Of a DNA stretch of 64,000 bases, positions 26,541 to 52,064 are shown piece after piece. Under the pieces are notes generated by a model. It had not been told where the DNA came from. It saw only the letters and a program-made list of their open reading frames with translations, and ran no database searches. The DNA is from a virus (taxonomy: Duplodnaviria; Heunggongvirae; Uroviricota; Caudoviricetes): positions 211,298 through 275,297 of IMG/VR virus record IMGVR_UViG_3300033463_000001. One strand, given 5' to 3'. Position numbers and translations under genes: made by a program. Each line of letters starts with the position of its first letter. Position 1 is the first letter of the stretch.

Positions 26541-26566
26541 AGTTGTAATAGTTTTTCAAATTCGCC

Positions 26567-26617: not shown

Positions 26618-26619
26618 CA

Positions 26620-27198: not shown

Positions 27199-27211
27199 GT
27201 GTTCTCATTTG

Positions 27212-27400
27212 TTAATCGTCAATTACCTGCCAATCCTCGCGGTTAACGAACTTGTCAAACCACGGGCTGTTATCAATGGTACCTTCTTTTGTGCGTACGT
27301 AGAACAGATTATCATCGCCTACGAACCACCAGCCTTCCCACTCTGGGAGCTTAATCTTTTTGCCACTATATGCTGCGGCCAGCGCTAATCTAAAGTTCAT
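27212..27400 (-). CDS. small hypothetical protein (62 aa)
   Basis: Compact ORF between the coiled-coil gene and prs on the same strand. Confidence 0.4.
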   Translation of the reverse strand: MNFRLALAAAYSGKKIKLPEWEGWWFVGDDNLFYVRTKEGTIDNSPWFDKFVNREDWQVIDD

Positions 27401-27412
27401 ATCCTTTATTGT

Positions 27413-29657: not shown

Positions 29658-29669
29658 ATGCGTGCTGTG

Positions 29670-36090: not shown

Positions 36091-36091
36091 A

Positions 36092-37210: not shown

Positions 37211-37215
37211 AGCTT

Positions 37216-37833: not shown

Positions 37834-38015
37834 TCAACCGTAATGATTACGTTTCTTGCGATGCCACGGATGCCTTGTTTTGTTGAGTAGTGTTTTCCGT
37901 CAAGGTAGCGTGTGAAGACGTAACCTGAGTGCTCGCCATAATATGCTCCGTCAGGCAGTTCTGTGATTTTTGATGTTATTTCAGGATTCATATTCCGTAT
38001 TTGATTAGTTCCCAT
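37797..38015 (-). CDS. small hypothetical protein (72 aa)
   Basis: ORF coupled to neighbours on the same strand. Confidence 0.35.
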   Translation of the reverse strand: MGTNQIRNMNPEITSKITELPDGAYYGEHSGYVFTRYLDGKHYSTKQGIRGIARNVIITVECGKEISYDYGH

Positions 38016-38275
38016 ATGTTATAACGGAAGAATTGAACAAGTCCTTTGAGAGACCGCCATATTACTTTCAGCAATGATATCAACAAACAGATAGTCATTG
38101 CTACCACATATGCGGCAATAGTTACAGGCCAGAAGAGCACTTTTGCCATTGATATTTCATCATTCCTGTCATCCGCAAACCACCCAAATAGTCCGCCGAG
38201 ACACCAGAATGCAAATCCAGCGATGCCATATATGATAAGTGCTGCGACAACGCATCCAATTGTTTCAAGCGTCAT
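37988..38275 (-). CDS. small membrane protein (95 aa, two TM helices)
   Basis: Two hydrophobic helices (IGCVVAALIIYGIAGFAFWCLGGLFGWF and FWPVTIAAYVVAMTICLLISLL). Confidence 0.45.
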   Translation of the reverse strand: MTLETIGCVVAALIIYGIAGFAFWCLGGLFGWFADDRNDEISMAKVLFWPVTIAAYVVAMTICLLISLLKVIWRSLKGLVQFFRYNIWELIKYGI

Positions 38276-38792
38276 TGTCTTCAGTGATTTTAGAGAAGTC
38301 CAACTCAGATATAATGTGTAACAGTCGTTCCAGCTCGAAGTTTCGGTAAGCCGTCATTGCGTAGGTGCGAGGATTGGAGTGGTTGTAACCAAATCGCTCG
38401 ATGTATTCTTTGCAAGCGCGTTTTGTGAGGAAAGCACCGGTGTTCATGCTAATGAAATCCTCTTGGCGAGTTGAGATGAGCCGTGCCTCGTCTACGCCAC
38501 ACATGTCGTTATAGAAATCGATAACACTCTCAATATCTGATTTATCAACATCACACCAAGCAATCCCCTCTTCTTGACCGTCAACGTACTCGTCCACGTG
38601 TTCTACAAACTCGTCACATGTGTATGTTCTATCGTCGCAGACGACCATTTCGTCATCTCCGCAGCCTTCCGGAACGCCGACTGTTTTTGTTTCAAGAACT
38701 CCCCAGTATACAGGTGATGCGTTACCGTCATTCGTCTGAGTGTTGAGTTCGTGCTGTAAATCCTTCAGGAATTCAATATCTTCTTTTTTCAT
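38265..38792 (-). CDS. hypothetical acidic protein (175 aa)
   Basis: ORF, Cys/Asp-rich. Confidence 0.45.
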   Translation of the reverse strand: MKKEDIEFLKDLQHELNTQTNDGNASPVYWGVLETKTVGVPEGCGDDEMVVCDDRTYTCDEFVEHVDEYVDGQEEGIAWCDVDKSDIESVIDFYNDMCGVDEARLISTRQEDFISMNTGAFLTKRACKEYIERFGYNHSNPRTYAMTAYRNFELERLLHIISELDFSKITEDNDA

Positions 38793-38802
38793 AATGTTAG
38801 TT

Positions 38803-39294
38803 TTATTGGATTGGCATCCAGTGAGTGATTAAACCTTGCAATATCTTCGCAGGACACCAAGTCTTTGTCGCATGGTCATACCTGGCTGATGTTCCGTCAC
38901 CTTTGTATGTCTTTACGAAAACTGTTTTTGATAATAATGTTTTATGACTATCATCTATTTCCGGAAGACGGTCATCTACACTAATCCATCTGTCGCGCAG
39001 TATAGCATTTTCAACTGACGCCATATCTACAGCTGTTGAGTAGGCAGCTATTCGCTTATCGCGCAGTGCCACGGAATCTTCCAAACGTCTGTTTGCAACG
39101 GATAGTTTTTCACACATATCTTGGAGCCTTTTGATTTCTGCATCACGACTGTGTGCTCCTGCAATAAAGGCCTTTTCACTAACAGCATGACACATGTTAC
39201 TGCCAGAATGGTCAGTATAATCGTGTTTATCATACTCACCATAATTATCTATTGCGTACTCTAATGCATTTTGTTTAATTTGTTCTTCTGCCAT
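38803..39294 (-). CDS. DUF551-like protein fused to shared N-terminal 'MTDEQIRQNA...AGAHSRD' module
   Basis: C-terminal RWISVDDRLPE...THWMPIQ. N-terminus MAEEQIKQNALEY...FIAGAHSRDAEI matches standalone ORFs 40663 and 41600. Confidence 0.55.
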   Translation of the reverse strand: MAEEQIKQNALEYAIDNYGEYDKHDYTDHSGSNMCHAVSEKAFIAGAHSRDAEIKRLQDMCEKLSVANRRLEDSVALRDKRIAAYSTAVDMASVENAILRDRWISVDDRLPEIDDSHKTLLSKTVFVKTYKGDGTSARYDHATKTWCPAKILQGLITHWMPIQ

Positions 39295-39578
39295 AGTTCT
39301 TTTAGGTAATTAACGTATCGTTGCTGCTCATCAAGCACCTTCTCCTCGCGTTCAATGACTTTCTCAATTGATATTAACGCAACATTGTTTGCAGCGCACT
39401 CATAATGCAGCTCCTTGGGTAGTCGGCAACCGTTATATCCAGCAAAAGCACAGTGTCGGCAGTGCGAGTAATCTGGATTCTGCTCCTCACACAGATATTT
39501 CTTATCATTAATAATAACGACGTCGCCGTGGTTGAGGTATTTTTCCCCTGTTAATTCGTCCGTATCCATATTGTTCAA
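39261..39578 (-). CDS. hypothetical protein (105 aa) with CxxC pairs
   Basis: ORF containing ...CEEQNPDYSHCRHCAFAGYNGC... Confidence 0.4.
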   Translation of the reverse strand: MNNMDTDELTGEKYLNHGDVVIINDKKYLCEEQNPDYSHCRHCAFAGYNGCRLPKELHYECAANNVALISIEKVIEREEKVLDEQQRYVNYLKELWQKNKLNKMH

Positions 39579-39931
39579 TGCTTCTTTTGGTTAGGCCGTT
39601 TTCCGTTATGTGTCTCGCGGTAGTCCATGTCAATGTAGTCAAGGAGCCTTATAAGGAATGGGATTTCGTTTTCTACATCTGTTAACTCGTTCGCTTCAAA
39701 TCCAATGACTGTCCTGTAGTCTTGCGCTTTGAGATAAAGCTTGAGTCCGAATTCGTTACCACTGATTATGTCAAAACAAGCGTTAAACGTTCCGAACGGC
39801 TGGAGGTAGTGTATTATCGTTTCACCAGTCAGTTCAAACTTACCATTCTCGAAATACTCTGCGATATTACGCATAAGGCGCTGCTTAATTGGTAGCAGTT
39901 GGTTTTGGTATTTTTTACTTGGTAAACTCAT
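39575..39931 (-). CDS. hypothetical protein (118 aa)
   Basis: ORF; start overlaps the upstream stop. Confidence 0.45.
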   Translation of the reverse strand: MSLPSKKYQNQLLPIKQRLMRNIAEYFENGKFELTGETIIHYLQPFGTFNACFDIISGNEFGLKLYLKAQDYRTVIGFEANELTDVENEIPFLIRLLDYIDMDYRETHNGKRPNQKKH

Positions 39932-39941
39932 AGTGTTTTAT

Positions 39942-40232
39942 TTAAAAATTCACCCAAATTACTTTATATATCATGCGATACCTATTGCGCCTTGTTAAGA
40001 CGGTGTACCGCCAATGTTTCTTAGACGAATCAAAATACTCATCGCGAATATATCTTGAATCGCCATCAGAGATGACGCTTGTTTCGCCGTTGTTTTTGCG
40101 TATCATTTCTCCGGGGAGTGGAACGCGCTCTGCGTAGGAATACCAACGTTGTTTTCCGTTAAGGAACTTAGCAATCTCTTTACTGTTCATCACGTACTTC
40201 TCCACTGTGACAGGAATAACTTCGTATGCCAT
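39942..40232 (-). CDS. hypothetical protein (96 aa)
   Basis: ORF, basic. Confidence 0.4.
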   Translation of the reverse strand: MAYEVIPVTVEKYVMNSKEIAKFLNGKQRWYSYAERVPLPGEMIRKNNGETSVISDGDSRYIRDEYFDSSKKHWRYTVLTRRNRYRMIYKVIWVNF

Positions 40233-40250
40233 AATTAACTGTTTTTATTT

Positions 40251-40658
40251 TTAATAACCAAGCAAAAGAGCTAAACATTTCCTAATTCCTTCCTCTAGTG
40301 CATACTCATACGTAAGGAAATTACCTTCTGAATAGGCGAAGTTAGCCATATTGATTACACCTTGTATACTGTATTCGTATTCTCTGTTTTCAAATGAGGC
40401 GATTTTACCATTACTCAGGATTACATGCCATTTTACAATGACTTCAATCCCCTTAACTTCTCTTAACCATCGTTGTGCTACAGCAAGCGTTGGTGCTGAT
40501 TTCAGAAGGTCTTCCTCGTTGAGATTGCATGCGTCGTACTCTTCGTTCGATAGCGTTGGTTGGTTATTGAAATAAGCATATTCACAATCCCAGTTGAAAC
40601 CAATTTCTTTCAGTAGGGATGCAGTTGCTAATGATACGTAACTTTCGTGTTTAGTCAT
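40251..40658 (-). CDS. paralog family A protein (HESYVS...SAPTLAVAQRWL), copy 1 of 4
   Basis: MTKHESYVSLATASLLKEIGFNW...SAPTLAVAQRWLREV...YEYALEEGIRKCL shared with 41182, 42396 and 45754. Confidence 0.55.
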   Translation of the reverse strand: MTKHESYVSLATASLLKEIGFNWDCEYAYFNNQPTLSNEEYDACNLNEEDLLKSAPTLAVAQRWLREVKGIEVIVKWHVILSNGKIASFENREYEYSIQGVINMANFAYSEGNFLTYEYALEEGIRKCLALLLGY

Positions 40659-40662
40659 GTTA

Positions 40663-40914
40663 TTAGTTGTTTAAGAATTTACGTGGAAGCATCATCCTGT
40701 CGCTAGCATAATCTTTCAACTCTTCGTAACGTTTGCGCAATGCGTCCAGTTCTTCGTTGCGACTGTTTGCTCCGGCAATAAATGCCCTTACTAACGGTTC
40801 CTCGTGGAATCCATCCAACGGTTCCTCACCATCCAGAAGCCGCTGCAGCTCGTATTTGTCATATCCGACTCCGATATAACTGATGGCATTGTCTCTTATT
40901 TCCTTATCTGTCAT
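40663..40914 (-). CDS. paralog family C small protein (MTD.EIR.NA...AGA.SR), standalone copy
   Basis: MTDKEIRDNAISY...AFIAGANSRNEELDAL; same module as the N-termini of 38803 and 44545. Confidence 0.5.
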   Translation of the reverse strand: MTDKEIRDNAISYIGVGYDKYELQRLLDGEEPLDGFHEEPLVRAFIAGANSRNEELDALRKRYEELKDYASDRMMLPRKFLNN

Positions 40915-41195
40915 TTCTTATCCTCCTTATCTTTCCACTTGAGTTTGTAGGTGTGCGTTGTGTCGCCATTGAGAATATGTGTCGTTTCAATGTAGACGGC
41001 GCGACCTTCGATAACGTCGGTGTCGTTAGGCGTTTCTGTTAACTCGATGATTGCCGGAATGGTCAGGAAGAACAAGAAAATTGAAAAGATACATCTTGGG
41101 TCTTCTTTAGCAAAGCCAACGCAAACGAGTACAACAAATAAAGCACAAATTGTGCAGATTAACGTAATTGCTGATGCCATATTATTTTTGTTCAA
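40911..41195 (-). CDS. small membrane protein (94 aa)
   Basis: Single long hydrophobic helix (AITLICTICALFVVLVCVGF...). Confidence 0.4.
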   Translation of the reverse strand: MNKNNMASAITLICTICALFVVLVCVGFAKEDPRCIFSIFLFFLTIPAIIELTETPNDTDVIEGRAVYIETTHILNGDTTHTYKLKWKDKEDKK

Positions 41196-41598
41196 TTAAC
41201 ATCGTTAAACATTTTTGAATGCCTTCCTCCAAAGCGTCTTCATATGTATTTGCTCTACCCATGTGGTAAAACACTTTAATGAATTCATTCTTAGCATTTG
41301 CAATCTCAGCTTCTTCTTTGGACGGAATGTAATCACATATATATTGAAAGAATCCAATGAAAGGTTCTACAAAAACGTGTAATTTGAATGTTTCTCTTAA
41401 CCACCGTTGAGCAACTGCAAGAGTTGGTGCCGATAGGCCATATTTTTTACTATTATGATTTCTTCCATCTGGGAAAAAAGACATTAAAAACGTTTTTTCA
41501 TCCCATAACTCATAGCAGTAGTTTGTATTCCAATCGAATCCGGCGTCTTTTAAGAGTTTAGCTGTTTCCTCACTAACATATGATTCGTGTGTTGTCAT
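41182..41598 (-). CDS. paralog family A protein, copy 2 of 4
   Basis: MTTHESYVSEETAKLLKDAGFDW...SAPTLAVAQRWLRE...YEDALEEGIQKCL. Confidence 0.55.
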   Translation of the reverse strand: MTTHESYVSEETAKLLKDAGFDWNTNYCYELWDEKTFLMSFFPDGRNHNSKKYGLSAPTLAVAQRWLRETFKLHVFVEPFIGFFQYICDYIPSKEEAEIANAKNEFIKVFYHMGRANTYEDALEEGIQKCLTMLIEQK

Positions 41599-41599
41599 T

Positions 41600-41809
41600 T
41601 TAATATTCCAATTCGGTAATTCTTAATTGAAGTTTTTGAACCAAAGCCCTATACTTTGCGATTTCCTCATCGCGGCTATGAGCACCCTTGATATAGGCGA
41701 CCTCAGCAGCCGTATGTATCGCTAAAGGGATACCATTATTTTGTTCCGTAATAGGAGCAGCTTTGTTAGCGTACTCCTCTGCGTTTTGTCTAATTTGTTC
41801 GTCTGTCAT
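41600..41809 (-). CDS. paralog family C small protein, standalone copy
   Basis: MTDEQIRQNAEEYA...AYIKGAHSRDEEIAKY. Confidence 0.5.
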   Translation of the reverse strand: MTDEQIRQNAEEYANKAAPITEQNNGIPLAIHTAAEVAYIKGAHSRDEEIAKYRALVQKLQLRITELEY

Positions 41810-41811
41810 AG

Positions 41812-42393
41812 TTATTTACCCTTCCAATTTTCCTGTATATACCAATTTGCCGCTTCGAGCGCCTCTTCTTTTGTATTCCATTTTTGATTGCCATCTTTAT
41901 CTACGACGTCCAGACTTCCTATTTTTGCATAGTAATGAACTCCACCAGGCCAAACAAGCACCCTAATATCAGAAGCAGAAGGTTTTTCTTCATCCGGGAA
42001 AGTTAGTGTTTCTTTTTCCACTTCGGCAATTACCTCGGATACTCTCTCATCGAAAAGCATTACTTGCATTCCATGGGTTAGGTAAATTTCTTTATCGCCA
42101 CATGATTTGATTCGAGATTGAAACGCTTCGTTTTCGACGCAAACAAGTGCTGTACGCAAATCTGTGCCTGTAGCAGCCATATATACTTCAACTGCTCGTT
42201 CAAAGTCGTTATTACAATGCCCGATAACACTTTTCAATACTTTCCTTACAAGGTGATGCGTGCCTTCTTTGATTACCGACGCAGGATATTTATACCAGTG
42301 TTCAACGACCTGTGCAACATCTTTTGGTTTAAACAACCAATATTCGTTGTTGCCATTAATTTTTTGTTTTATTTTAACAAACGTGTAAGACAT
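41812..42393 (-). CDS. hypothetical protein (193 aa)
   Basis: ORF 2 nt after the upstream stop. Confidence 0.45.
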   Translation of the reverse strand: MSYTFVKIKQKINGNNEYWLFKPKDVAQVVEHWYKYPASVIKEGTHHLVRKVLKSVIGHCNNDFERAVEVYMAATGTDLRTALVCVENEAFQSRIKSCGDKEIYLTHGMQVMLFDERVSEVIAEVEKETLTFPDEEKPSASDIRVLVWPGGVHYYAKIGSLDVVDKDGNQKWNTKEEALEAANWYIQENWKGK

Positions 42394-42395
42394 AC

Positions 42396-42806
42396 TTATT
42401 TCTCAAGTAAAATGGTTAAACATTTCTTGATACCTGCTTCAAGAGCCAATTCATAAGTATCAAAATTTTCAGGTGTAAGTGCAATGCCACCAACGTCTTC
42501 ATGCAAAAGCCAAAAGTCTTTAGCAATTAAAGGTGTCCATTTTTTACTGCCTGATAATGGTGATGCTATTATTTGAATATTCTTCACTTCTATCAACCAC
42601 CTCTGAGCAACTGCGAGGGTCGGCGCGGAGAAAAATTCATAAGGTGTATTTACCTCGTAGCTTTTTGCGTTAAAATTGTCCTGGAGGCCATCTGTTTTGT
42701 GCACAAGCTCACCATCTCTATACGCTGAGTCTATAAACCACTTAAAACCTGCTTGTTTTAGAAGTTTAGATGTTTCAAGACTTACATATGTTTCGTGTTG
42801 GTTCAT
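42396..42806 (-). CDS. paralog family A protein, copy 3 of 4
   Basis: MNQHETYVSLETSKLLKQAGFKW...SAPTLAVAQRWLIEV...YELALEAGIKKCL. Confidence 0.55.
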   Translation of the reverse strand: MNQHETYVSLETSKLLKQAGFKWFIDSAYRDGELVHKTDGLQDNFNAKSYEVNTPYEFFSAPTLAVAQRWLIEVKNIQIIASPLSGSKKWTPLIAKDFWLLHEDVGGIALTPENFDTYELALEAGIKKCLTILLEK

Positions 42807-42809
42807 AAT

Positions 42810-43535
42810 TTATTCAGGATTATTAGTTGTACCTACCAAGCGTTCATTGCCTTCGTATGGAATACAATATTTATAATCATTTGCGCAGCAACGATATGGA
42901 TAGTCCTTTGGATAGTTGCCGTCATAATAGCGAAATATATCTGGCACCCATTTTCCTTCACTATTATCCCTCACTAACACCTTATCAAACGGCTTAAACT
43001 CATATTTCTCTTTATAGTGTTTTAATTTTCTGAGTTCTACTTTAGAACATCCACATGTCCCATCTGCGAATATCAAGGCTTTATCGTTTTTAATTTCTTT
43101 TATAGTCCATATAATCTCACTACCACTTTTTGTAACTTTATCCCCAACCTTGAAATTATGTGTCCATACATCATATTTACGTTCTGTGCAATCATTAGTA
43201 CATGAATGACATTGCCCGTCACAACCTGCCAAGCCATTCAACTGCTCTGATGGCTCTTCTGGGAGTTCAATGAATAAATCAGTAGGATGCTCATCAATAA
43301 CTGCATTAAAACCATTTCTTCCATCTTTTGTAAAATTATATATAACATCCTGTTTTTCTTCAGGTAATACAATAATACCAACTATCGGATGAAATGGGTG
43401 TTTAAAATCAAAACATAGTATTTTGACGTTATATCCGCTTCTTGTTACAATTCTACCTTCAACCTCTCCTGATTGAATCTTCTTTGCTAGTTCAATAGTG
43501 AATGGCAGTTGTTTCAATTGTTTATTTTCTTCCAT
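42810..43535 (-). CDS. hypothetical Cys-rich protein (241 aa)
   Basis: ORF with CDGQCHSCTNDC and CGCS clusters. Confidence 0.45.
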   Translation of the reverse strand: MEENKQLKQLPFTIELAKKIQSGEVEGRIVTRSGYNVKILCFDFKHPFHPIVGIIVLPEEKQDVIYNFTKDGRNGFNAVIDEHPTDLFIELPEEPSEQLNGLAGCDGQCHSCTNDCTERKYDVWTHNFKVGDKVTKSGSEIIWTIKEIKNDKALIFADGTCGCSKVELRKLKHYKEKYEFKPFDKVLVRDNSEGKWVPDIFRYYDGNYPKDYPYRCCANDYKYCIPYEGNERLVGTTNNPE

Positions 43536-43554
43536 TTTTTTTTCTCGTAGTGTT

Positions 43555-43872
43555 TTAGTTTTTGTTTATATAACTTTCCATTGCTTTGTTGATGCCACCG
43601 AAATTTTCTACGATATTATCACACCAATCAATATTAAGTTCGTCAATATAGTCAGGAGCATCTTCGATACTGTAATACGTATGGATTAGAGGTATCATTT
43701 GTGTAGTGGTAAAACTGTATACACCTCCGACTTTTGTTGCGTGGAAACACCATGCTTCTTTGTTGTTGTATGCGCAAAGAAGTTTTGTTGCCATAACGGG
43801 TTCACCTTTGAGTGTATGTTCTTCGTACAATGGCGCGTTTTTTAATGCTCGTAGAATATCTTCTTTTGTCAT
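43555..43872 (-). CDS. hypothetical protein (105 aa)
   Basis: ORF, no motif. Confidence 0.4.
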   Translation of the reverse strand: MTKEDILRALKNAPLYEEHTLKGEPVMATKLLCAYNNKEAWCFHATKVGGVYSFTTTQMIPLIHTYYSIEDAPDYIDELNIDWCDNIVENFGGINKAMESYINKN

Positions 43873-43910
43873 ATTCCTAATGGTTCTTCAGCAAAGATAA
43901 TATATTGATT

Positions 43911-44261
43911 TTACTTATCAAGGAATTCTTGTATTTGTTTTACTGTCTCATCGTGCGTTTCTTTTGTGTATGGGAACACTCTCATAACTTTACTCGCTGG
44001 TGATGTGTTGCAAGCGTATGTTAGTGTGTACAGGTATTCGTTCAGGTATGCACCTTGTAGCCCTGTAGAGTCAAACACAACGAGTATTCTGTATGGTGCG
44101 CCTTTTCCCTCTGCGATGATGCGCGTAGTTCTAGCGTAAGAGCCTAGTGTGTTTCTATTATTGACATTGATACGGTGGGCTTCTTTGAAACTTGTAATGT
44201 TGAGTGATTTGATAAATGCATCACCAGTTTCAGCTCTGTCCGTTACGATGTAGAGGTTCAT
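43911..44261 (-). CDS. hypothetical protein (116 aa)
   Basis: ORF, no motif. Confidence 0.4.
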   Translation of the reverse strand: MNLYIVTDRAETGDAFIKSLNITSFKEAHRINVNNRNTLGSYARTTRIIAEGKGAPYRILVVFDSTGLQGAYLNEYLYTLTYACNTSPASKVMRVFPYTKETHDETVKQIQEFLDK

Positions 44262-44460
44262 AGTGCTCCTTTCTCTTTAAGTTTGTTTGCGAGTCGATTT
44301 GTTTTGACAATTTTATACCATATTCCATCAAATGTTGTATTTTCTCTCGTTCCTCTTTTGAAAACTGTTTCGGAGGCTTTCCACAGACCATTGGTGGGTA
44401 GTCAACAATTATAAGACCAGTCTTTTCGTACGCCCAGACGTTATTTCCTAAACTAAACAT
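44230..44460 (-). CDS. small hypothetical protein (76 aa; start moved)
   Basis: ORF-track start 44487 would fall inside the -7 box of promoter 44485-44535. The next ATG (44460, MFSLGNN) leaves a ~20 nt leader. Confidence 0.4.
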   Translation of the reverse strand: MFSLGNNVWAYEKTGLIIVDYPPMVCGKPPKQFSKEEREKIQHLMEYGIKLSKQIDSQTNLKRKEHYEPLHRNGQS

Positions 44461-44484
44461 AATACATAGTTCGTTAAAATCCGA

Positions 44485-44535
44485 CACAAAGGTAAGTAAA
44501 ATTTTTCAATTTTGCAAATCCTTTAGATGAATTTT
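44485..44535 (-). promoter_or_regulatory. Bacteroidota-type promoter within a 50 nt conserved repeat, copy 2 of 3
   Basis: Minus-strand read: AAAATTCATCTAAAGGATTTG-caaaattgaaaaattttac-TTACCTTTG (TTTG ... TAccTTTG). Confidence 0.55.
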
Positions 44536-44544
44536 ACAAACTTA

Positions 44545-44988
44545 TCACTTATTCATTGTAAATCTTGGTATTGGCATCCAGTGTGTGAACCCATCAAAAT
44601 CAACTTCACCATGTATGGTGTGCCAGCAATGGTTTTCGTTTAAATCACCAATGTTATACTCACCTTCATCTGGTTTATGAAAATCGCCTAAAATAACAGT
44701 GTCACTACATTTACCGTCACTACATGTACACTCTAGCATCGGTGTTTGTTCTTGTACAGAAATCCACCTACCTAACGCGAGTTGGTTATATCTTGACTCT
44801 AGCTCACTAATGTATGTGCGTAACGCTTCGATTTCTTTATCTCTGCTTCTGTACCCATCAACATATCCTCTGGCTGCTTGGTAATTCAGAGCGTGTTGGA
44901 AATGGTTTCCAATTTGAGTAACAGGAGAAACTTTATCCGCATACTCTTCAGAAGCGGTTACGACTTTTTCAAATTCTTCTTCCGTCAT
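44545..44988 (-). CDS. DUF551-like protein fused to family C N-terminal module
   Basis: MTEEEFEKVVTASEEYA...GYRSRDKEIEAL N-terminus. C-terminus RWISVQEQTPM...FTHWMPIPRF. Confidence 0.55.
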   Translation of the reverse strand: MTEEEFEKVVTASEEYADKVSPVTQIGNHFQHALNYQAARGYVDGYRSRDKEIEALRTYISELESRYNQLALGRWISVQEQTPMLECTCSDGKCSDTVILGDFHKPDEGEYNIGDLNENHCWHTIHGEVDFDGFTHWMPIPRFTMNK

Positions 44989-45010
44989 AATATGGCAATT
45001 GTTATTCAGA

Positions 45011-45253
45011 TTAATCCCACGAAATCATCCACTCGTTGTAGTCGCATTCTTCAACCTTGAAGCCGTCTTCTTTCAAACGGTTCTTAGTTTGCCATGTGCA
45101 TATCCAATCCGGTTTGAAACCGTCGAATCCCTCTATACCAACTATGATATTGCTTTCTCCATTCTGCATAGCCTCTTTGATGTGCTCCTGGATGATATCA
45201 TAGTTGTTTTCGTTGGTAATTGCGTACTTACGCAACATTTCGTCTTTTGTCAT
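45011..45253 (-). CDS. hypothetical protein (80 aa)
   Basis: ORF; ATGA overlap with the small ORF upstream. Confidence 0.4.
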   Translation of the reverse strand: MTKDEMLRKYAITNENNYDIIQEHIKEAMQNGESNIIVGIEGFDGFKPDWICTWQTKNRLKEDGFKVEECDYNEWMISWD

Positions 45254-45402
45254 GCTTTAGCTTGTTTTTCGTTCCACTGTTTATCACTTCCGTATTCGTG
45301 AAGCCGATTGGCTAATTCACATATTTGTGAACCGCTCAATCTTTGAGATACGACATAGTTGTATAACTCCTCAGTTATTTTCGAACTAAAACCCTTACTC
45401 AT
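45250..45402 (-). CDS. small ORF (50 aa) not in the ORF track
   Basis: ATG 4 nt after the upstream stop. MSKGFSSKITEELYNYVVSQRLSGSQICELANRLHEYGSDKQWNEKQAKA; its TGA overlaps the ATG of 45253 (ATGA coupling). It fills an otherwise empty 140 nt gap. Confidence 0.35.
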   Translation of the reverse strand: MSKGFSSKITEELYNYVVSQRLSGSQICELANRLHEYGSDKQWNEKQAKA

Positions 45403-45757
45403 AATCTTTCAATTTTGAAAAATCCATGTCACACGTACCGATAATCGTAATCAACTGTTCTATTAAAGGCTTATCGCTATAGAATAAATCCCAACTTCTG
45501 CTCTTACGAACTCTGCATGTTTTAATGATTTCAATCAGTCTTCCTGCAGACCATGCTGGTGTGTATAAACTAGAAGTTCTAAAATAATCCAGTATTACCT
45601 GTCTGTGTTCATCATCTGGCATGAGCTGTAATGTGTCGTTATTACGCCCCCAACCAACTCCTGAATAATAACAATCTACACTATATAATGGTACGCCAAT
45701 ATCCACTAGACGTTGTGATTGTTCCATAGTGGTAAATCCGTTTTGAATTGATTTCAT
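45395..45757 (-). CDS. paralog family D protein (TPEQSKRLLDLGVP...PCWSAGRLIEIYEIC), copy 1 of 3
   Basis: Start moved to MKSIQNGFTTMEQSQRLVDIGVP by paralog alignment with 48278 and 49166. This gives an ATGA-type 4 nt overlap with the upstream gene. Confidence 0.5.
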   Translation of the reverse strand: MKSIQNGFTTMEQSQRLVDIGVPLYSVDCYYSGVGWGRNNDTLQLMPDDEHRQVILDYFRTSSLYTPAWSAGRLIEIIKTCRVRKSRSWDLFYSDKPLIEQLITIIGTCDMDFSKLKDYE

Positions 45758-46191
45758 TGTTTCGTCATTACGTATATTAAACATTGTTGTAAGCCAACTT
45801 CGAGCGCCTCTTCGTACGAAGGAAAAGTCCACTTATCTGGTTCGCCTAATGGTACATCATCAGCTTCGATATCAGTATCAGTAGCAGCGGATTGCCACAT
45901 CATGCGCCATGTATCCTCACCTTTATCTACCAGCTCAAATCCTGGACATGTGTACACTGCGATGTGTTTAGACTCAAGAAGCCATTTTTGTGCAACCGCC
46001 AAGGTCGGTGCAGAATAGTATTCTACGTCCGGATTAACAGACGCAGTTGCGTTTGCGTTCCAGTCTGATTCATATCCACGGAGGATAAACTTGCCATCTT
46101 TATTGTAATGCGCTGGGCATTCCCAGTCAAAACCAACGGCTTTTAATTGTTTCGCGGTATCGAAACTAACGTATGATTCATGTTTACTCAT
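45754..46191 (-). CDS. paralog family A protein, copy 4 of 4
   Basis: Start moved to MSKHESYVSFDTAKQLKAVGFDW by paralog alignment. ...SAPTLAVAQKWLLE...YEEALEVGLQQCL. Confidence 0.55.
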   Translation of the reverse strand: MSKHESYVSFDTAKQLKAVGFDWECPAHYNKDGKFILRGYESDWNANATASVNPDVEYYSAPTLAVAQKWLLESKHIAVYTCPGFELVDKGEDTWRMMWQSAATDTDIEADDVPLGEPDKWTFPSYEEALEVGLQQCLIYVMTKQ

Positions 46192-46269
46192 ATCACTCTG
46201 TATTTTATATTGCTGTACGCATGAAATCGACAGCATTCTCTAACAATTCTGTTGGTGTCATCCTTTACA

Positions 46270-46569
46270 TCATTTTGGTAATTCTGGGATAGGCATCCAA
46301 TGCGTACATTTATATCCTGAATACCCAAGAAATCTTTTCTCTTTGTTGAGGTCAGTAACGTGCATCGCAGTATATCCAACTAACCCAATAAAGCGCACAA
46401 ATACAAAGTCTCCCTTTTCAGGAAGTTTATCTTCTACACTTATCCACGGGTTCTGCGGATGAGCATCTGCCCATTTGGCACCTTCCGTAAAGTACTCCAT
46501 AGGGTACTTATGGTACATTTCTCCATAGTACGCCTTTGCAACTTGTTTTATTTCTTCTTCGCGTGTCAT
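46270..46569 (-). CDS. DUF551-like protein (99 aa)
   Basis: MTREEEIKQ...NPWISVEDKLPEKGD...CTHWMPIPELPK. Confidence 0.55.
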   Translation of the reverse strand: MTREEEIKQVAKAYYGEMYHKYPMEYFTEGAKWADAHPQNPWISVEDKLPEKGDFVFVRFIGLVGYTAMHVTDLNKEKRFLGYSGYKCTHWMPIPELPK

Positions 46570-46585
46570 AATTCAGTTATCCTTT

Positions 46586-46909
46586 CTATAATTGGGGTAT
46601 CGGCATCCAGTGGGTTACAAATTCTCCATCTTCAAAATCAAGTGTTTCTGGTTCTTCAGAGAAAAACCAATCTTTATTGTTATAATCATATTGCCCCTTA
46701 AACCAATATCCAATATTTGTAAGGGCAATGACTGCTTTCGAAATATTGTCTTTATCCTTTATTGGTAGTTCTTTGCTTGCATCACGCCACGGATTAACCG
46801 GGTGCTCGTCTGCCCATTTGCACGCATCTTGCCATGTAGTACGTTCAGAACAGTCTAAGTCATCCCTCCATTGTTCGTATGCTTTATTTATTTCTTCTTC
46901 GCGCGTCAT
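46586..46909 (-). CDS. DUF551-like protein (107 aa)
   Basis: MTREEEINKAYEQW...NPWRDASKELPIKD...VTHWMPIPQL; adjacent tandem paralog of 46270. Confidence 0.55.
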   Translation of the reverse strand: MTREEEINKAYEQWRDDLDCSERTTWQDACKWADEHPVNPWRDASKELPIKDKDNISKAVIALTNIGYWFKGQYDYNNKDWFFSEEPETLDFEDGEFVTHWMPIPQL

Positions 46910-46923
46910 AATCAGCCATTTCT

Positions 46924-47196
46924 TTAGTCAATCGGTTTTCCGTGCTTCAACTTCTCGGATGCCTCGTTAATCCACTTGATAATCTCGTCGCTCTTCATAA
47001 TGCGTATAGCATACTCATGGATTCGGGCAGACGGTTTCATAAGGTAGTCGTCATAATAATCTAGCACCTCCTCTGTGAAGCCATGTGCCCATTCTGTCGT
47101 CTTGCTAATGATTATCAACAGGATGGCGATTGGGAACAGAATTGCCATTAGGATATAATGGCACAGCATAATTGGTACCACCAATAACTTTTTCAT
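46924..47196 (-). CDS. small membrane protein (90 aa)
   Basis: MKKLLVVPIMLCHYILMAILFPIAILLIIIS hydrophobic N-terminus; first ATG is at 47196 (the ORF track used GTG 47202). Confidence 0.45.
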   Translation of the reverse strand: MKKLLVVPIMLCHYILMAILFPIAILLIIISKTTEWAHGFTEEVLDYYDDYLMKPSARIHEYAIRIMKSDEIIKWINEASEKLKHGKPID

Positions 47197-47198
47197 TT

Positions 47199-47375
47199 TC
47201 ACTCCTCCAATTTTAGTTTTTTAAGATTAAGTAACATAATTTTATCTTCTCCGCATGTTGCAATATCCAATCTCGCATCAGTTACTTCACAATCGCAATA
47301 ATCATGATTGAAATATAATGGGATGTTCTCTACATTATATTTTTGCGCAAATTCATATAATTCTTTTGCTGTCAT
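47199..47375 (-). CDS. small ORF (58 aa) not in the ORF track
   Basis: MTAKELYEFAQKYNVENIPLYFNHDYCDCEVTDARLDIATCGEDKIMLLNLKKLKLEE. ATG 2 nt after the upstream stop; its stop abuts the next start. It fills a 175 nt gap. Confidence 0.35.
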   Translation of the reverse strand: MTAKELYEFAQKYNVENIPLYFNHDYCDCEVTDARLDIATCGEDKIMLLNLKKLKLEE

Positions 47376-47377
47376 AA

Positions 47378-47797
47378 TTACTCCCTCGATATTTCTATTG
47401 CCAGTCCTTTTTCAATTAAACCTCTGTAATCAAAATGGTGTTCATTAAGCCAATCTATTGCTTCGTATGGTATGTACCATGTTTCGTTGTTAAAGTTATG
47501 GTAAACAGTTACGTATCCATATTCCTCTGTATGTCTTCCATTATCCTCTTCTCTAACGTCTATACAGAACTCTTGTTTAAGTTCTTCTTTTTCTTCATCA
47601 GTCATACTTGACAATGGCCGAAGATATGGTTTAATTTCCATACCTGCACACCGATTATACAATACACTCAGGTTTAACTCAGTATCATAAGGCTCACGTT
47701 CATCATAGAATACGTCATGTTCAATATGCACTGTTGGTTTATATGGTAATCTTGCACATAAATCTTTGTATAATATGGTCAAATCTTCCTTTGTCAT
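47378..47797 (-). CDS. hypothetical protein (139 aa)
   Basis: ORF, acidic. Confidence 0.45.
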   Translation of the reverse strand: MTKEDLTILYKDLCARLPYKPTVHIEHDVFYDEREPYDTELNLSVLYNRCAGMEIKPYLRPLSSMTDEEKEELKQEFCIDVREEDNGRHTEEYGYVTVYHNFNNETWYIPYEAIDWLNEHHFDYRGLIEKGLAIEISRE

Positions 47798-48069
47798 AAT
47801 TTTTGACTTACAATTACAAATTTAATATGGTCTGATGGGAATCCAATTGTTTTTTCGTTTTCGATATATGGCTTACGTTCACAGTATCCATACAATCCGC
47901 TTTTTTCAACGGTTACTACCATCTTTAATGTCTTTGGTTTTTCAATAAATTCTTTAACAATTCCAGTCATTACAAAAGAATTACCGGTTGTCCATCCATC
48001 AGACATTACAATTCTATCACCAATTTTTGGTGTCTTTCCGTTTAAATCATATATATCATTAATTGTCAT
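47794..48069 (-). CDS. hypothetical protein (91 aa)
   Basis: ORF; start overlaps the upstream stop. Confidence 0.4.
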   Translation of the reverse strand: MTINDIYDLNGKTPKIGDRIVMSDGWTTGNSFVMTGIVKEFIEKPKTLKMVVTVEKSGLYGYCERKPYIENEKTIGFPSDHIKFVIVSQKL

Positions 48070-48080
48070 AATTGAGCTAT

Positions 48081-48248
48081 TTAATTTCCTAATGCAATTT
48101 CTATTGCTCTTTCAGCAGCACTAAGACTAACTACATATGAACATTCTGTATATTCTCGACAATCTGGTCCATATGATTTTTCTATGTGATGCATTTTGAA
48201 CATATTAAGATAATCCAATGCTTTCTTTTTTCTGTCTTCCTTTTTCAT
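48081..48248 (-). CDS. small ORF (55 aa) not in the ORF track
   Basis: MKKEDRKKKALDYLNMFKMHHIEKSYGPDCREYTECSYVVSLSAAERAIEIALGN; occupies the 48070-48277 gap on the coding strand of the block. Confidence 0.3.
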   Translation of the reverse strand: MKKEDRKKKALDYLNMFKMHHIEKSYGPDCREYTECSYVVSLSAAERAIEIALGN

Positions 48249-48277
48249 ATTTTATTTGTTTTCATTGTTTGTCATAT

Positions 48278-48613
48278 TCACTCATCCAATTTTAAAAAGT
48301 CAAACCTATATTTTTTCTCCACATCTTCAAAATCTTCGAGTAGCATATCAATTTTTGAATAATTTTCAATAATTTCGTTTTGCCACACTTGTCCGGTACA
48401 GATTTCATACACCTCAATCAGTTGGCCAACCGACCAACAAGGAGTAAATCTGGTGTATGTGTCAAAGAATGAACTTTCTAACTTACCGTATACTCGAACT
48501 TCTAAATTCTTGTAATGGTCATAATAGCAATCCGCACTATCAGCCGGAACGCCTAAATCCAACAGCCGTTTTGACTGCTCTGGTGTTGTGAAATTACTTC
48601 GTAGCTTCTTCAT
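48278..48613 (-). CDS. paralog family D protein, copy 2 of 3
   Basis: MKKLRSNFTTPEQSKRLLDLGVPADSADCYY...PCWSVGQLIEVYEIC. Confidence 0.5.
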   Translation of the reverse strand: MKKLRSNFTTPEQSKRLLDLGVPADSADCYYDHYKNLEVRVYGKLESSFFDTYTRFTPCWSVGQLIEVYEICTGQVWQNEIIENYSKIDMLLEDFEDVEKKYRFDFLKLDE

Positions 48614-49169
48614 GTTTCAAATTTCTTCTAAATTCAATTTCATCACGATATTGTGGTGGGATAATAGCTGTTACCAACGCTTCACCAAATTCAATTTGGT
48701 TGTAAGGTTTAATATCTTTCCCATCTTTATGGCCACATCCGAGACTGAATCCCATGCTGAAATAGTATTCCAGCATGCTTGCAAGTCTACGTTGAGCTGC
48801 GAAGACGAAATCGCCAGGAATACGATGGTTATGCCTAGCTATACTGGGGAAAACTTCCTCAACATCTTTGTCACGTGCAATTTGAAAATCGGGATGATTC
48901 TCGTATTTTTTTGCGTGGTCGAAATGCATTTCATATTCCCTTTGTATACGTGCAGCTATTTCACGGTACGCATCCTCTTTTCCCATGAAATATGAGATTT
49001 GGTCTGCTTCATTGTGCCTATCGTAATGCTCCAGAACCAGTTTCCATTGTGCATTTTTGCAGTTATCAGCGATGTTATCGAGAGCTGTCATCAATTCACT
49101 ATAAAACTTCGCATAAAGCTCAAGTGCGTACGGCAATGCTATATCAAATTCTTCTTTTGTCATGGTCAT
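48594..49169 (-). CDS. hypothetical protein (191 aa)
   Basis: ORF coupled on both sides; His-rich segments. Confidence 0.45.
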   Translation of the reverse strand: MTMTKEEFDIALPYALELYAKFYSELMTALDNIADNCKNAQWKLVLEHYDRHNEADQISYFMGKEDAYREIAARIQREYEMHFDHAKKYENHPDFQIARDKDVEEVFPSIARHNHRIPGDFVFAAQRRLASMLEYYFSMGFSLGCGHKDGKDIKPYNQIEFGEALVTAIIPPQYRDEIEFRRNLKHEEATK

Positions 49170-49525
49170 TCCTCTAGTTTTGAAAGGTCGAGTCTATGAT
49201 TCAGGAATGCAGATTCCATTGTCGTGTAGATGTCTGCGAAAACGCCATATACGTCAAGTCGAGTGAAAATCTTTCCAGAACAGATTTCGTAGATTTCAAT
49301 GAGTCGCCCGGCAGACCAACAAGGTCGCATGTTAGGCGCTATCTCATATGTAAATGCTGTTGTGAGTTGTTCCGAATAGGTTTGGTCGCCACAGTGGAAT
49401 ATTCTTGACAGTTCCTTGCGCCTATTCTCGTGGAAATAGCAATCAGCAGTATCTTCCGGGAGGCCTAACTCTAAGAGCCGTTTCGCTTGCTCCGGTGTTG
49501 TGTAGTTATTTTGTAATTTTCTCAT
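49166..49525 (-). CDS. paralog family D protein, copy 3 of 3
   Basis: MRKLQNNYTTPEQAKRLLELGLPEDTADCYF...PCWSAGRLIEIYEIC. Confidence 0.5.
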   Translation of the reverse strand: MRKLQNNYTTPEQAKRLLELGLPEDTADCYFHENRRKELSRIFHCGDQTYSEQLTTAFTYEIAPNMRPCWSAGRLIEIYEICSGKIFTRLDVYGVFADIYTTMESAFLNHRLDLSKLEE

Positions 49526-49527
49526 AA

Positions 49528-50175
49528 TCAGTCAACTAGTTCGAATTCGTAAACAAATACAATTGGGTTATACGGTTCGCACGGAAGATTCCGATACGCT
49601 TTCTTTGGTTTTTTCCGGATTTTATCCATGAGTAATAGAAATGCCTCGCGGGCGGTCGGCTTCCACTCTTCGATTGTTCCATGGCTAAATATATACGCGA
49701 CCTTGGAACCGTTTTCGCAGTAGTTTACCTCATGAATACCTTCCCTAAGAGCATCCTCTTCGCTGATATCTTGTAACTCTTGTGCTGTGATGCTTGTGAT
49801 GCGGATATGGTGTGGCATGTATTTTGCCTTAGCAAAGAGTTTATTGTTCCAACCTGTGAGAATACCTTCTCCACTGCATACAGCTTCTCTGTAACACATA
49901 CACGGAACGTCTTTGTACTTTTGTGCAACAGCTACAATCTCACCAACATGGTACTGCGAGCGGATGTACTGCTCCGGCTCATATGAGAACTCGTCCGGGT
50001 CGAGCACTTCGATGAACAGGTACTGTCCATCGCCTACGACCTTTCCTGCTGGCCATCGATAGAAGCCGATTTCCTTTTTGCCACGATAGCGAGCCACACG
50101 GCGCGTCATTGTTTTCTTTCCTTTCAGTACAGCATCTGTTAGTCTGTACTTATCGTTGAACATTATCTTTTTCAT
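49528..50175 (-). CDS. ASCH (PUA-like) domain protein
   Basis: N-terminal FNDKYRLTDAVLKGKKTMTRR resembles the ASCH GxKxxExR beta-barrel start; later ISEEDALREG. Confidence 0.45.
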   Translation of the reverse strand: MKKIMFNDKYRLTDAVLKGKKTMTRRVARYRGKKEIGFYRWPAGKVVGDGQYLFIEVLDPDEFSYEPEQYIRSQYHVGEIVAVAQKYKDVPCMCYREAVCSGEGILTGWNNKLFAKAKYMPHHIRITSITAQELQDISEEDALREGIHEVNYCENGSKVAYIFSHGTIEEWKPTAREAFLLLMDKIRKKPKKAYRNLPCEPYNPIVFVYEFELVD

Positions 50176-50178
50176 AAT

Positions 50179-50742
50179 TTACCTCCATTCGTGATGACAG
50201 TCGAGACATTCGAACCGGTCTGCAAACATGCCAGGATAACAGTGTATATTTGTCGAACCGCACTTTGGGCAGCATTCCAAGTTGTTAACTTCTATTTTTC
50301 CATAATCTCGCAGCTGTTTCAATCTTGAACAAAACTCAGTTTGCGTTAGTACGGTTTTTGTTTTATCATTTTTTCCGATTGAGTGTGTAAGCGTACACCC
50401 TTTTGTTGCTTCTAGTGCATTCCTGAACCCAGCATTCTCGTATAATGCATTGTATGCTCTATCTAGTAATACTTGATATTCTTTAGATTGACGAGCAATC
50501 GCTTTACCCTGCCAATACAAAGTTTGTGTTTTCCACCACTTTTTATTTTTACCCTTAAATTTGGCGGCTTTTCCAACAAGCGTACATACATATTTCTGCA
50601 TATCTACCGATTCAAACTTGAGAGACTGTAAAAAGCCTTCCATTGAATTGCACTGGACTCCATCTATTACAAACGGGTGCGGTGCAAAATTCGATAGAGC
50701 AGAACTTGGATAACTATTTCCACTTCCTATATCCATTACCAA
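50179..50742 (-). CDS. NADAR (YbiA/DUF1768) domain protein with C-terminal zinc ribbon
   Basis: ...SALSNFAPHPFVIDGVQCNSMEGFLQSLKF... aligns with E. coli YbiA FSNFAAWPIKVDGKTWPTSEHYFQAQKF. C-terminal CCPKCGS...CLDCHH. Confidence 0.7.
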   Translation of the reverse strand: MVMDIGSGNSYPSSALSNFAPHPFVIDGVQCNSMEGFLQSLKFESVDMQKYVCTLVGKAAKFKGKNKKWWKTQTLYWQGKAIARQSKEYQVLLDRAYNALYENAGFRNALEATKGCTLTHSIGKNDKTKTVLTQTEFCSRLKQLRDYGKIEVNNLECCPKCGSTNIHCYPGMFADRFECLDCHHEWR

Positions 50743-51149
50743 TTATATTTTAATACTCGCTCAATTTTTCTATTTCCGTACGTTCCAAAGATGCGCCCAA
50801 CCACTATACGAGCTCCTTCCTTCTGCGTGTGTATATCATATAAGGTGACTGCCAAAGTGTTGTCCTGTACATCTGAAACGATTCCGTAGTGATATCTTGG
50901 AGAATTGGCCGAGTCGTTCATAATGTAGAGAACGTGGTCTCCTCGATGCAGCTTATACGACTTGATATCAGTCCAATCTGTTTCCTTAACTTCGTCATCA
51001 GTGTCTTCCGGTGGAAACAGGTCTACAACAGCGAAGTCATTATCAACCATTACGTCACCTACGAGCGCACTCTCTTCGTTTATCGTCATCTGAACCGAGT
51101 AGTTATTCGGAACAGAGTCGAGACGTTGTATAAGTTCTTGTTTTGTCAT
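50736..51149 (-). CDS. hypothetical protein (137 aa)
   Basis: ORF; start overlaps the upstream stop. Confidence 0.45.
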   Translation of the reverse strand: MTKQELIQRLDSVPNNYSVQMTINEESALVGDVMVDNDFAVVDLFPPEDTDDEVKETDWTDIKSYKLHRGDHVLYIMNDSANSPRYHYGIVSDVQDNTLAVTLYDIHTQKEGARIVVGRIFGTYGNRKIERVLKYNW

Positions 51150-51544
51150 TCTTCTGTGTATTTGTGGAAATATTCGTTTACGAACGGCGACCCGTCTTCC
51201 TTTTGTATCTCCTCACACCTGTGAGCCCATGCTACGAATCTATGAATAGGCCAAATATCGGAATACATTCCTATAGGACAATCAATATCATTGTAGTGCA
51301 TGTGGTAGTGATGTACACAGCCGCCAATGAGCTGCATCCATTCACCTTCACTATCCTCCTCAATTTTACCACCAGAGAGTACGTAGTCAATCATTTCTTG
51401 AGCCGTGTGAAAATAACCACACAATTCCATGCGTTCATACTTTTCCTGCTTACGCTCTTCCTCACGTCTTTTCATTTCAGCATCATATTGAGCTGCAAGT
51501 TCCTCAAGAGTCTTACCACTCTTTTTTCCGTACTTGACTTCCAT
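51146..51544 (-). CDS. hypothetical protein (132 aa)
   Basis: ORF; charged N-terminus; His/Cys cluster (CVHHYHMHYNDIDC). Confidence 0.45.
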   Translation of the reverse strand: MEVKYGKKSGKTLEELAAQYDAEMKRREEERKQEKYERMELCGYFHTAQEMIDYVLSGGKIEEDSEGEWMQLIGGCVHHYHMHYNDIDCPIGMYSDIWPIHRFVAWAHRCEEIQKEDGSPFVNEYFHKYTEE

Positions 51545-51548
51545 ATTA

Positions 51549-51881
51549 TTATTCTTCTAGTTGGTCAATAATTTCTAATCCGTTATTTGTGCTGGCCTCA
51601 CAAAAGTTCCGCAAGCCTTGTTCAAACTCGTCCATATCGAACTTGCTGCCAGTACTAGTGTGACATCTGAATTTGTAGTGGCATTCCGGGCATTCAAACA
51701 CAGCCATCAATCCCCAACTTGTTTCACACCAGCCGATGATGTTTGCTTTGATGTATCTACCCTCTTTATCCCACGCCGCATATGCCAAGTCGCAACGTCC
51801 ACATTTACAGTTTAATCCTGCGGAATATGGAATAGTTTCCCATTGGGTGATTTTCGGTAAAATATCAGTAATTCTTTTCAT
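51549..51881 (-). CDS. hypothetical Cys-rich (zinc-finger-like) protein (110 aa)
   Basis: CKCGRC...CPECHYKFRC pairs. First gene after promoter 51899-51949. Confidence 0.45.
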   Translation of the reverse strand: MKRITDILPKITQWETIPYSAGLNCKCGRCDLAYAAWDKEGRYIKANIIGWCETSWGLMAVFECPECHYKFRCHTSTGSKFDMDEFEQGLRNFCEASTNNGLEIIDQLEE

Positions 51882-51898
51882 GCGCTTTCAAATTTCGG

Positions 51899-51949
51899 TG
51901 CAAAGATATGTAAAAATTTTGAATTTTGCAAATCCTTTGGACGATTTTT
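51899..51949 (-). promoter_or_regulatory. Bacteroidota-type promoter within a 50 nt conserved repeat, copy 3 of 3
   Basis: Minus-strand read: AAAATCGTCCAAAGGATTTG-caaaattcaaaatttttaca-TATCTTTG, 13 nt before ATG 51881. Divergent from the + strand fibre genes. Confidence 0.6.
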
Positions 51950-52064
51950 GGCTATTATCCATGGATTTGCATGTCTCGCTACTAATATAGTCCCGGTGAA
52001 CGGTACTTTGTACCACAATCGTTGATTTTTATCTGGCATAAGGTATGAAACCGTTGAAATACGT

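Follow-up and report, generated by a model that had tools for sequence, protein, structure and literature searches.

A gp30.3/AdfN-type NADAR protein with a predicted zinc-ribbon tail in a metagenomic jumbo phage

The present analysis concerns a 64,000-nucleotide stretch of DNA (hereafter, the window) from a phage of the class Caudoviricetes, which corresponds to positions 211,298 to 275,297 of the IMG/VR record IMGVR_UViG_3300033463_000001; the source is a jumbo phage of 327 kb. The listing of open reading frames (ORFs) places two neighbours on the minus strand, at 50179-50742 and 49528-50175, the first of which encodes a NADAR protein with a cysteine-rich C-terminal tail and the second a protein of the ASCH fold. 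The features of the two genes are as follows.

50179..50736, minus strand: gp30.3/AdfN-type phage NADAR with a predicted C-terminal zinc ribbon, complete gene of 185 amino acids and a stop codon (ORF and PF08010 match)
50296..50736, minus strand: NADAR catalytic core, residues 1-147, with catalytic E33, K40, and H118 and the C-terminal helix
50638-50640, minus strand: codon of catalytic E33
50617-50619, minus strand: codon of K40
50383-50385, minus strand: codon of the phage-type His, H118
Residues 132-145 of the protein, minus strand: C-terminal helix of the NADAR core (predicted)
50182..50295, minus strand: 38-amino-acid C-terminal extension, residues 148-185, with putative zinc-ribbon knuckles (sequence and a weak Pfam match)
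49528..50175, minus strand: gene of the ASCH-fold protein, 215 amino acids, with the octapeptide G19-x-K21-x-x-T24-x-R26 and conserved E145

The original prediction, which was made from the letters of this stretch, had the NADAR gene extend from 50179 to 50742. The ORF is real, but its start is the ATG at 50736, which overlaps the TAA stop codon of the upstream ORF (TAATG; TGGTAATGGATATAGG), since all homologues open with MDIGSG and a length of 185 amino acids is given for P0001, an identical protein in the database; the TTG at 50742 simply marks the outer bound of the mechanically called ORF. This ORF is identical (P0001) in the JGI and ENA assemblies, on contigs of 327,292 and 327,291 bp, respectively.

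The 185-amino-acid protein matched the Pfam family PF08010 (Phage_30_3) with an E-value of 1.7e-59 and a score of 200 bits (cut-off 36), and residues 11-146 aligned with profile positions 2-138 of 138; it also matched phrog_652 (E = 1.8e-49). Confirmation of both domains with hidden Markov models had been proposed, and it succeeded in part: the NADAR protein was recognised through PF08010 but had no direct match to the Pfam NADAR family PF08719, and the ASCH neighbour scored 19.2 bits, under the threshold of 21.2, with the ASCH beta-barrel being confirmed by fold comparison. The PF08010 family is counted as NADAR based on fold comparison and the literature rather than on a PF08719 match. A search of the PDB sequences with both proteins and their family profiles gave nothing useful, and fold comparison was needed. 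The AlphaFold model of the NADAR protein had a mean predicted local distance difference test (pLDDT) score of 82.5, with the core mostly at 80-96, and it matched exactly three solved structures above noise, the next one scoring 3.6. This comparison confirmed the NADAR (YbiA) fold, and, in BFVD, gp30.3-like proteins of phages headed the fold matches, with giant-virus "NADAR domain" proteins after them.

A direct alignment with T4 gp30.3 (L090:8308-8766, 152 amino acids) gave 42% identity and located the active site. E36 and K43 of the T4 protein align with E33 and K40, and the His of its LKHSIA motif aligns with H118 (LTHSIG), which adjoins E117, the sole beta residue modelled near the C-terminus of the core. 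All three residues are invariant in 40 homologues, among which 59 positions are invariant in total. The last-strand residue distinguishes the known branches of the family, being His in phage NADARs, Glu in YbiA, and Asp in DarG1 (PMC11125620; PMC12945103). The C-terminal helix is predicted at residues 132-145 and aligns with the C-terminus of the T4 protein. The fold, the Glu/Lys/His set, and the C-terminal helix are thus all intact, and the membership of the protein in the gp30.3/AdfN-type NADAR family is as good as certain. The NADAR core and C-terminal Cys/His cluster that the original prediction had described, including the core motif that it quoted, LSNFAPHPFVIDGVQCNSMEGFLQSLKF, are both present in the protein.

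The tail that follows the core sets the protein apart from its relatives. It contains two knuckles, C156-P-K-C159-G and C177-L-D-C180 (CPxCG...CxxC), which are separated by a 17-residue spacer, as well as C155, H165, C166, H181, and H182. A zinc ribbon was taken to consist of two CxxC knuckles that are spaced by approximately 15-20 residues, lie on beta-hairpins, and bind one zinc ion. Among all ORFs of at least 40 amino acids in the six frames of the window, that of the tail was the sole CxxC-(8-25)-CxxC motif. The tail weakly matched Pfam Zn_ribbon_IS1595 (E = 0.026, below the threshold), and a Foldseek search returned a weak match to a 36-amino-acid viral zinc-ribbon protein at rank 50. AlphaFold modelled short strands in this region at a low confidence (pLDDT 55-72), which is attributed to its coverage by a single sequence. 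The core is net basic (22 K+R vs 12 D+E) and the tail net acidic (3 K+R vs 6 D+E), which favours a protein-docking or stabilising role for the tail over DNA binding. Since no internal start codon is present where core and tail meet, the arrangement is a true fusion.

This extension was not found in any other homologue examined. Among the 120 closest clusters of the 4521 homologues detected, the tail was absent from all proteins (143-179 amino acids) except the identical 185-residue P0001, and the nearest relatives (85-88% identity) end in ...LRDNGKL. Full ORFs at 87 other NADAR loci encode 146-164 amino acids and have no CxxC in a tail, while none of the 150 best representatives at 50% identity aligns past query residue 157 or contains CxxC...CxxC; many of these representatives bear other extensions, of the BspA-type leucine-rich repeat, YpsA/SLOG, and Lgt kinds. 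Such fusions were noted in P0281, P0336, P0366, P0294, and P0313 (BspA-type repeats, YpsA/SLOG, Lgt, or an FtsW-like region); a fusion with SLOG agrees with the NAD/ADP-ribose theme, and others may be artefacts of gene calling. A search with a 44-residue tail query was uninformative because it returned no match, not even to its own protein.

Candidates for a relative of the tail were considered and rejected. Translated nucleotide searches covered up to residues 165-169 in cultured Pseudotevenvirus phages, but the alignments read through stop codons into unrelated sequence, and the translated loci show that these NADAR proteins end in ...LRDLL at 146 amino acids. An 11-residue match (E = 0.039) to the ORF at 51549-51881 of the window was judged to be a generic knuckle likeness. 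None of the small zinc-ribbon ORFs that lie directly downstream of the NADAR gene in L022, L084, and L048 was related to the tail. The ORF at 51549-51881 (minus strand) is the first gene of the run in which both genes lie; it encodes a Cys-rich, zinc-ribbon-like protein of 110 amino acids (C25-x-C27-x-x-C30 ... C64-P-E-C67-H), the second knuckle of which, FECPECHYKFR, weakly resembles FECLDCHHEWR of the NADAR tail. The lineage-specific tail, a predicted zinc ribbon, most likely serves as a small module for structure or protein docking, and it probably arose by gene fusion with a small zinc-ribbon ORF of a kind that is common in these phages.

The core has a wide distribution. Translated searches found a homologue in 1505 phage records, mostly Straboviridae of enterobacteria, Aeromonas, Acinetobacter, and Vibrio, with protein identities of 61-71% to the cultured Pseudotevenvirus, Enterobacter/Kosakonia, and Vibrio phages listed. 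At the nucleotide level, the NADAR gene was the only part of positions 48000-52000 that matched cultured phages, being 67-69% identical to the gp30.3 genes of RB43-like and other T4-like phages. AdfN-type NADARs with 70-88% identity occur on contigs that are 170-500 kb long and come from samples of the same kind; these are very large phages outside the enterobacterial T-even group, which suggests that guanine ADP-ribosylating defences matter in their hosts too. The Bacteroidales-phage ASCH family described below occurs in the same sample series as these NADAR loci.

T4 gp30.3, from which the phage branch was founded, has been shown to remove ADP-ribose from guanine, and not from thymine, of DNA in vitro (PMC11125620, Toxins 2024), and it was renamed AdfN (anti-DarT factor NADAR) by Johannesman et al. 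(Nat Commun 2025, PMC11825919), who reported that it is necessary and sufficient for the resistance of T-even phages to DarTG1. In the T4 protein, the substitutions E36A and K43A impair rescue and E36A abolishes de-ADP-ribosylation in vitro, while an RB69 allele without the last helix is defective, indicating that the protein needs this helix to be fully active (PMC11825919). Every phage NADAR tested was specific for guanine-ADP-ribose (PMC11825919), and the hydrolysis of this adduct in DNA, or rescue from DarTG1, is known only for the NADARs of T4, Bas32, and Bas60 (PMC11825919, PMC11125620).

By analogy with AdfN, we consider it likely that the present protein is an AdfN-type DNA ADP-ribosyl-glycohydrolase, which would be made early and would hydrolyse the guanine-ADP-ribose set on phage DNA by a DarT1-like host toxin. 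In this proposal, the NADAR protein is probably produced early in infection from the long accessory gene run in which it is encoded. A DarT1-like, or another guanine-specific, ADP-ribosyltransferase of the host would mark replicating phage DNA, and the NADAR protein, with E33, K40, and H118 in its active site, would hydrolytically cut the N-glycosidic bond that joins ADP-ribose to guanine. Removal of the mark would restore replication and defeat an abortive-infection defence. The suggestion in the original prediction that a phage NADAR acts against DarT thus held in kind, through homology to AdfN (PMC11825919; PMC11125620); this biology was already published in 2024-2025, and the protein described here adds one metagenomic example of it.

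Several considerations weigh against this proposal. We infer the substrate and the counter-defence role from the characterised homologue. From the relatives of the ASCH protein, the host would seem to be a member of the Bacteroidales, and the literature on DarTG in Bacteroides offered nothing decisive. AdfN-T4 functions only during infection by T-even phages (PMC11825919, PMC11125620), and the in vivo activity of the present NADAR may, therefore, need partners. Iyer et al. argued that most phage NADARs target soluble ADP-ribose derivatives (PMC9503650), and T4 and other NADARs also act on guanine-ADP-ribose in RNA (PMC12945103), so that DNA need not be the sole substrate. Furthermore, the tail is represented by a single sequence, from the same 327-kb contig in the JGI and ENA assemblies, with a pLDDT of 55-72.

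An unlikely alternative is that the NADAR protein reverses the ADP-ribosylation of guanine, or of another base, in RNA, or in DNA or RNA modified by a transferase other than DarT, with the zinc ribbon docking to the target or the toxin; a pierisin/ScARP-like or YarT-like toxin and a phage-encoded ADP-ribosyltransferase (ART) are candidates for this transferase and share in the same low probability. All NADAR families remove guanine-ADP-ribose from RNA in vitro (PMC12945103), a YbiA-type NADAR neutralises the non-DarT ART YarT (PMC11125620), T4-like phages express NADARs together with phage ARTs (PMC9503650), and the acidic tail looks protein-binding rather than DNA-binding. On the other hand, AdfN-T4 has no stable interaction with DarT1 (PMC11825919), and no ART was present among the scanned genes of the window, where most small minus-strand ORFs were unscanned and 64 of the 327 kb are visible. 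The PADLOC defence models had no matches, and the profile scan found neither an ART nor a Pfam domain among the neighbours of the NADAR gene.

It is improbable to a similar degree that the protein mainly acts, together with NAD-salvage genes, on small molecules derived from ADP-ribose, for instance immune signals or compounds left over from NAD turnover or RNA repair. Iyer et al. (2022) proposed this for most phage NADARs and pointed to co-occurring NAD-salvage genes (PMC9503650), and NMNAT-like, Nudix, NAPRTase, Prs-like, PncA-like, and NadE genes are indeed present in the window at 23005-30542. However, the NADAR gene lies 20 kb from this cluster in another gene run, soluble substrates have not been demonstrated for any member of the gp30.3 family, and T4 gp30.3, the sole characterised member of this exact family, acts on guanine-ADP-ribose in nucleic acid and counters DarTG1. 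The cluster itself is a minus-strand set of NAD+ salvage and synthesis genes, which resembles the NAD-reconstitution pathways by which phages counter NAD-depleting defences.

23005-23754, minus strand: cytidylyltransferase-like/NMNAT-like
23757-24287, minus strand: Nudix
24289-25554, minus strand: NAPRTase
25704-26540, minus strand: Thg1-like guanylyltransferase
27413-28309, minus strand: phosphoribosyltransferase/Prs-like
29058-29657, minus strand: isochorismatase/PncA-like
29670-30542, minus strand: NAD synthase

NADARs are common in jumbo phages, alongside NAD-salvage genes (PMC9503650). At L010, where the closest IMG/VR relative of the NADAR gene (88% identity) lies on a 380-kb contig, a Thg1-like gene (L010 5297-6127) follows 0.85 kb downstream, whereas the Thg1-like gene of the present phage lies within the NAD cluster, which suggests a pool of accessory genes shared among jumbo phages.

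Given the dependence of AdfN-T4 on the T-even context, an idea about the tail, albeit an unlikely one, is that it could make this AdfN self-sufficient by supplying the function that AdfN-T4 takes from a T-even phage factor. The tail might then dock to the replisome or a single-stranded DNA-binding protein, or might bind a DarT-like toxin directly; in a weaker version of the idea, the adjoining ASCH protein could erase a second host-imposed nucleobase modification. A self-sufficient AdfN, if real, would represent a new autonomous anti-ADP-ribosylation architecture in the jumbo phages of Bacteroidales and provide a handle on the T4 cofactor. The unique zinc-ribbon fusion may be viewed as a natural experiment on what limits AdfN activity outside its native phage.

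Regarding the ASCH neighbour, its octapeptide G19-K-K21-T-M-T24-R-R26 aligns with G19-R-K21-T-I-T24-I-R26 of YqfB at the same positions (hhalign), and, in a weak, ungapped local alignment, E145 and the invariant D141 correspond to YqfB E74 and H70, respectively. Among 45 family members, K21 and E145 are invariant, and conservation of T24 and R26 reaches 90% or more. In YqfB, the K21A, T24A, and R26A mutants are inactive and E74A is impaired 100- to 1000-fold (PMC6972931), and diverse ASCH proteins were found to deacetylate N4-acetylcytidine in tRNA (bioRxiv 10.64898/2026.02.27.708502). Since the catalytic set of YqfB is kept, a YqfB-type hydrolase is the best guess in light of this literature, and the protein is a candidate YqfB-like amidohydrolase, possibly acting on substrates of the N4-acyl-cytidine type. 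The family comprises more than 7,800 clusters and is tied to Bacteroidales (Bacteroides genomes, phages of Bacteroides and Porphyromonas, and one crAss-like phage). Its members are typically encoded on viral contigs that are 35-80 kb long, with YopX-like, HNH, and PAPS-reductase-like accessory genes around them. An uncharacterised Bacteroidales-phage family that keeps the YqfB catalytic set may merit a study of its own.

The two genes were originally regarded as a pair, which comparison with other loci did not bear out. An ASCH homologue lies within 4 kb at only one of the 87 other gp30.3-type NADAR loci (L025, 1.8 kb away), a gp30.3-type NADAR lies within 4 kb at none of the 80 ASCH-family loci, and the closest NADAR relatives are directly flanked by unrelated genes. 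The adjacency arose by chance and is not a conserved pair, and the ASCH protein is an independent accessory gene rather than a dedicated partner of the NADAR protein. The co-transcription that had been proposed is plausible, given that 3 nt separate the NADAR stop from the ASCH start, but nothing ties it to these two genes in particular: both belong to a co-directional minus-strand run of approximately 45 small genes over approximately 17 kb (35.6-51.9 kb), in which neighbouring genes either overlap briefly (mostly by 1-4 nt) or stand a few nt apart, and it is equally plausible for the packed run from approximately 51881 to 47378. A candidate promoter for this run was found by pattern matching.

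51901..51908, minus strand: TATCTTTG, a Bacteroidetes-type -7 promoter box approximately 20 nt upstream of the first gene of the run

The window shows no enrichment of the TAnnTTTG motif (52 occurrences vs 56.5 expected), a scan of the window for sigma-70 promoters and terminators gave results at the chance level, and the terminator scan returned no terminator-like site on the minus strand between 51881 and 47163. From these weak signals, the whole run may be under one promoter, with TATCTTTG as the candidate.

It is very unlikely that NADAR and ASCH form a two-enzyme cassette that clears host-imposed base modifications, with the former removing ADP-ribose and the latter an N-acyl-type adduct. 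Both are predicted hydrolases of modified nucleobases, the stop-to-start gap of 3 nt is accompanied by a GGAGG directly upstream of the ASCH ATG, and the phage contig L025 holds both genes within 2 kb; however, the linkage is missing at 86 of the 87 other NADAR loci and at 80 of the 80 ASCH loci, every gene of the 17-kb run is packed as tightly, and the phage ranges differ, with T4-like phages and jumbo myoviruses carrying the NADAR and Bacteroidales phages of 35-80 kb carrying the ASCH protein. A YbiA-type N-glycosidase that detoxifies intermediates of the riboflavin pathway, the grouping that the original prediction named as its refutation, is effectively refuted by the family assignment, given a TIGR02464 score of 18.3 bits against a cut-off of 73.7, His rather than the YbiA Glu at the diagnostic position of the last strand, the PF08010 match described above, and a window without riboflavin genes.

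Several other features of the window were noted. The run at 35600-51900 (minus strand) includes several families of paralogues, with the patterns "HESYVS..AKLLK..GF.W" (at 40251, 41182, 42396, 45754, and others) and "TTPEQ.KRLL.LG.P" (at 45395, 48278, and 49166), as well as DUF551 proteins at 38803, 46270, and 46586; the ASCH family in Bacteroides phages is also flanked by small proteins related to those of the run. A 502-amino-acid protein with SPFH/Band-7 and flotillin domains is encoded at 31244-32752 (minus strand). Diversity-generating retroelements occupy 10640-21996 (plus strand), with reverse transcriptases at 12642-13877 and 20707-21996 (phrog_1423), and 33 of the 38 mismatches between their variable repeats (VR) and template repeats (TR) fall at template adenines.

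VR 11818-11943 and TR 12513-12638, plus strand: repeats of the 3' end of ORF 10640-11944
VR 16709-16843 and TR 17060-17194, plus strand: repeats of the 3' end of ORF 15234-16841
VR 20001-20119 and TR 20650-20768, plus strand: repeats of the 3' end of ORF 18557-20128

In comparison with known systems, the ASCH protein differs from E. coli YqfB and other ASCH N4-acetylcytidine amidohydrolases (PMC6972931; bioRxiv 10.64898/2026.02.27.708502) in being twice their size, with two large insertions at approximately residues 27-75 and 88-110, in having an invariant Asp, D141, in place of H70, and in belonging to a Bacteroidales-phage-specific family (phrog_874, function unknown). The NADAR protein is distinguished from E. 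coli YbiA, the riboflavin-intermediate N-glycosidase of TIGR02464, by a score under the family threshold, His for Glu, and its phage context. Unlike DarG1 of the DarT1-NADAR toxin-antitoxin system (Geobacter lovleyi NADAR, 8BAT), it has no adjoining DarT toxin, has His instead of Asp in the last strand, and is devoid of the N-terminal elements that form the electropositive DNA channel of DarG1, bearing an acidic C-terminal predicted zinc ribbon instead. Known phage NADARs "consist solely of the core domain" (PMC12945103), and the protein departs from AdfN in its 38-residue putative zinc-ribbon tail, in its origin from a 327-kb metagenomic jumbo phage with Bacteroidales-type neighbours rather than a T-even phage, and in that its activity is assigned by homology. 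With AdfN (T4 gp30.3, PF08010), it shares the fold, the Glu and Lys, the phage-specific His, the C-terminal helix, and a full-length profile match, and, in both cases, a small gene encodes the protein and lies in a run of early or accessory genes in a large myovirus-like phage.
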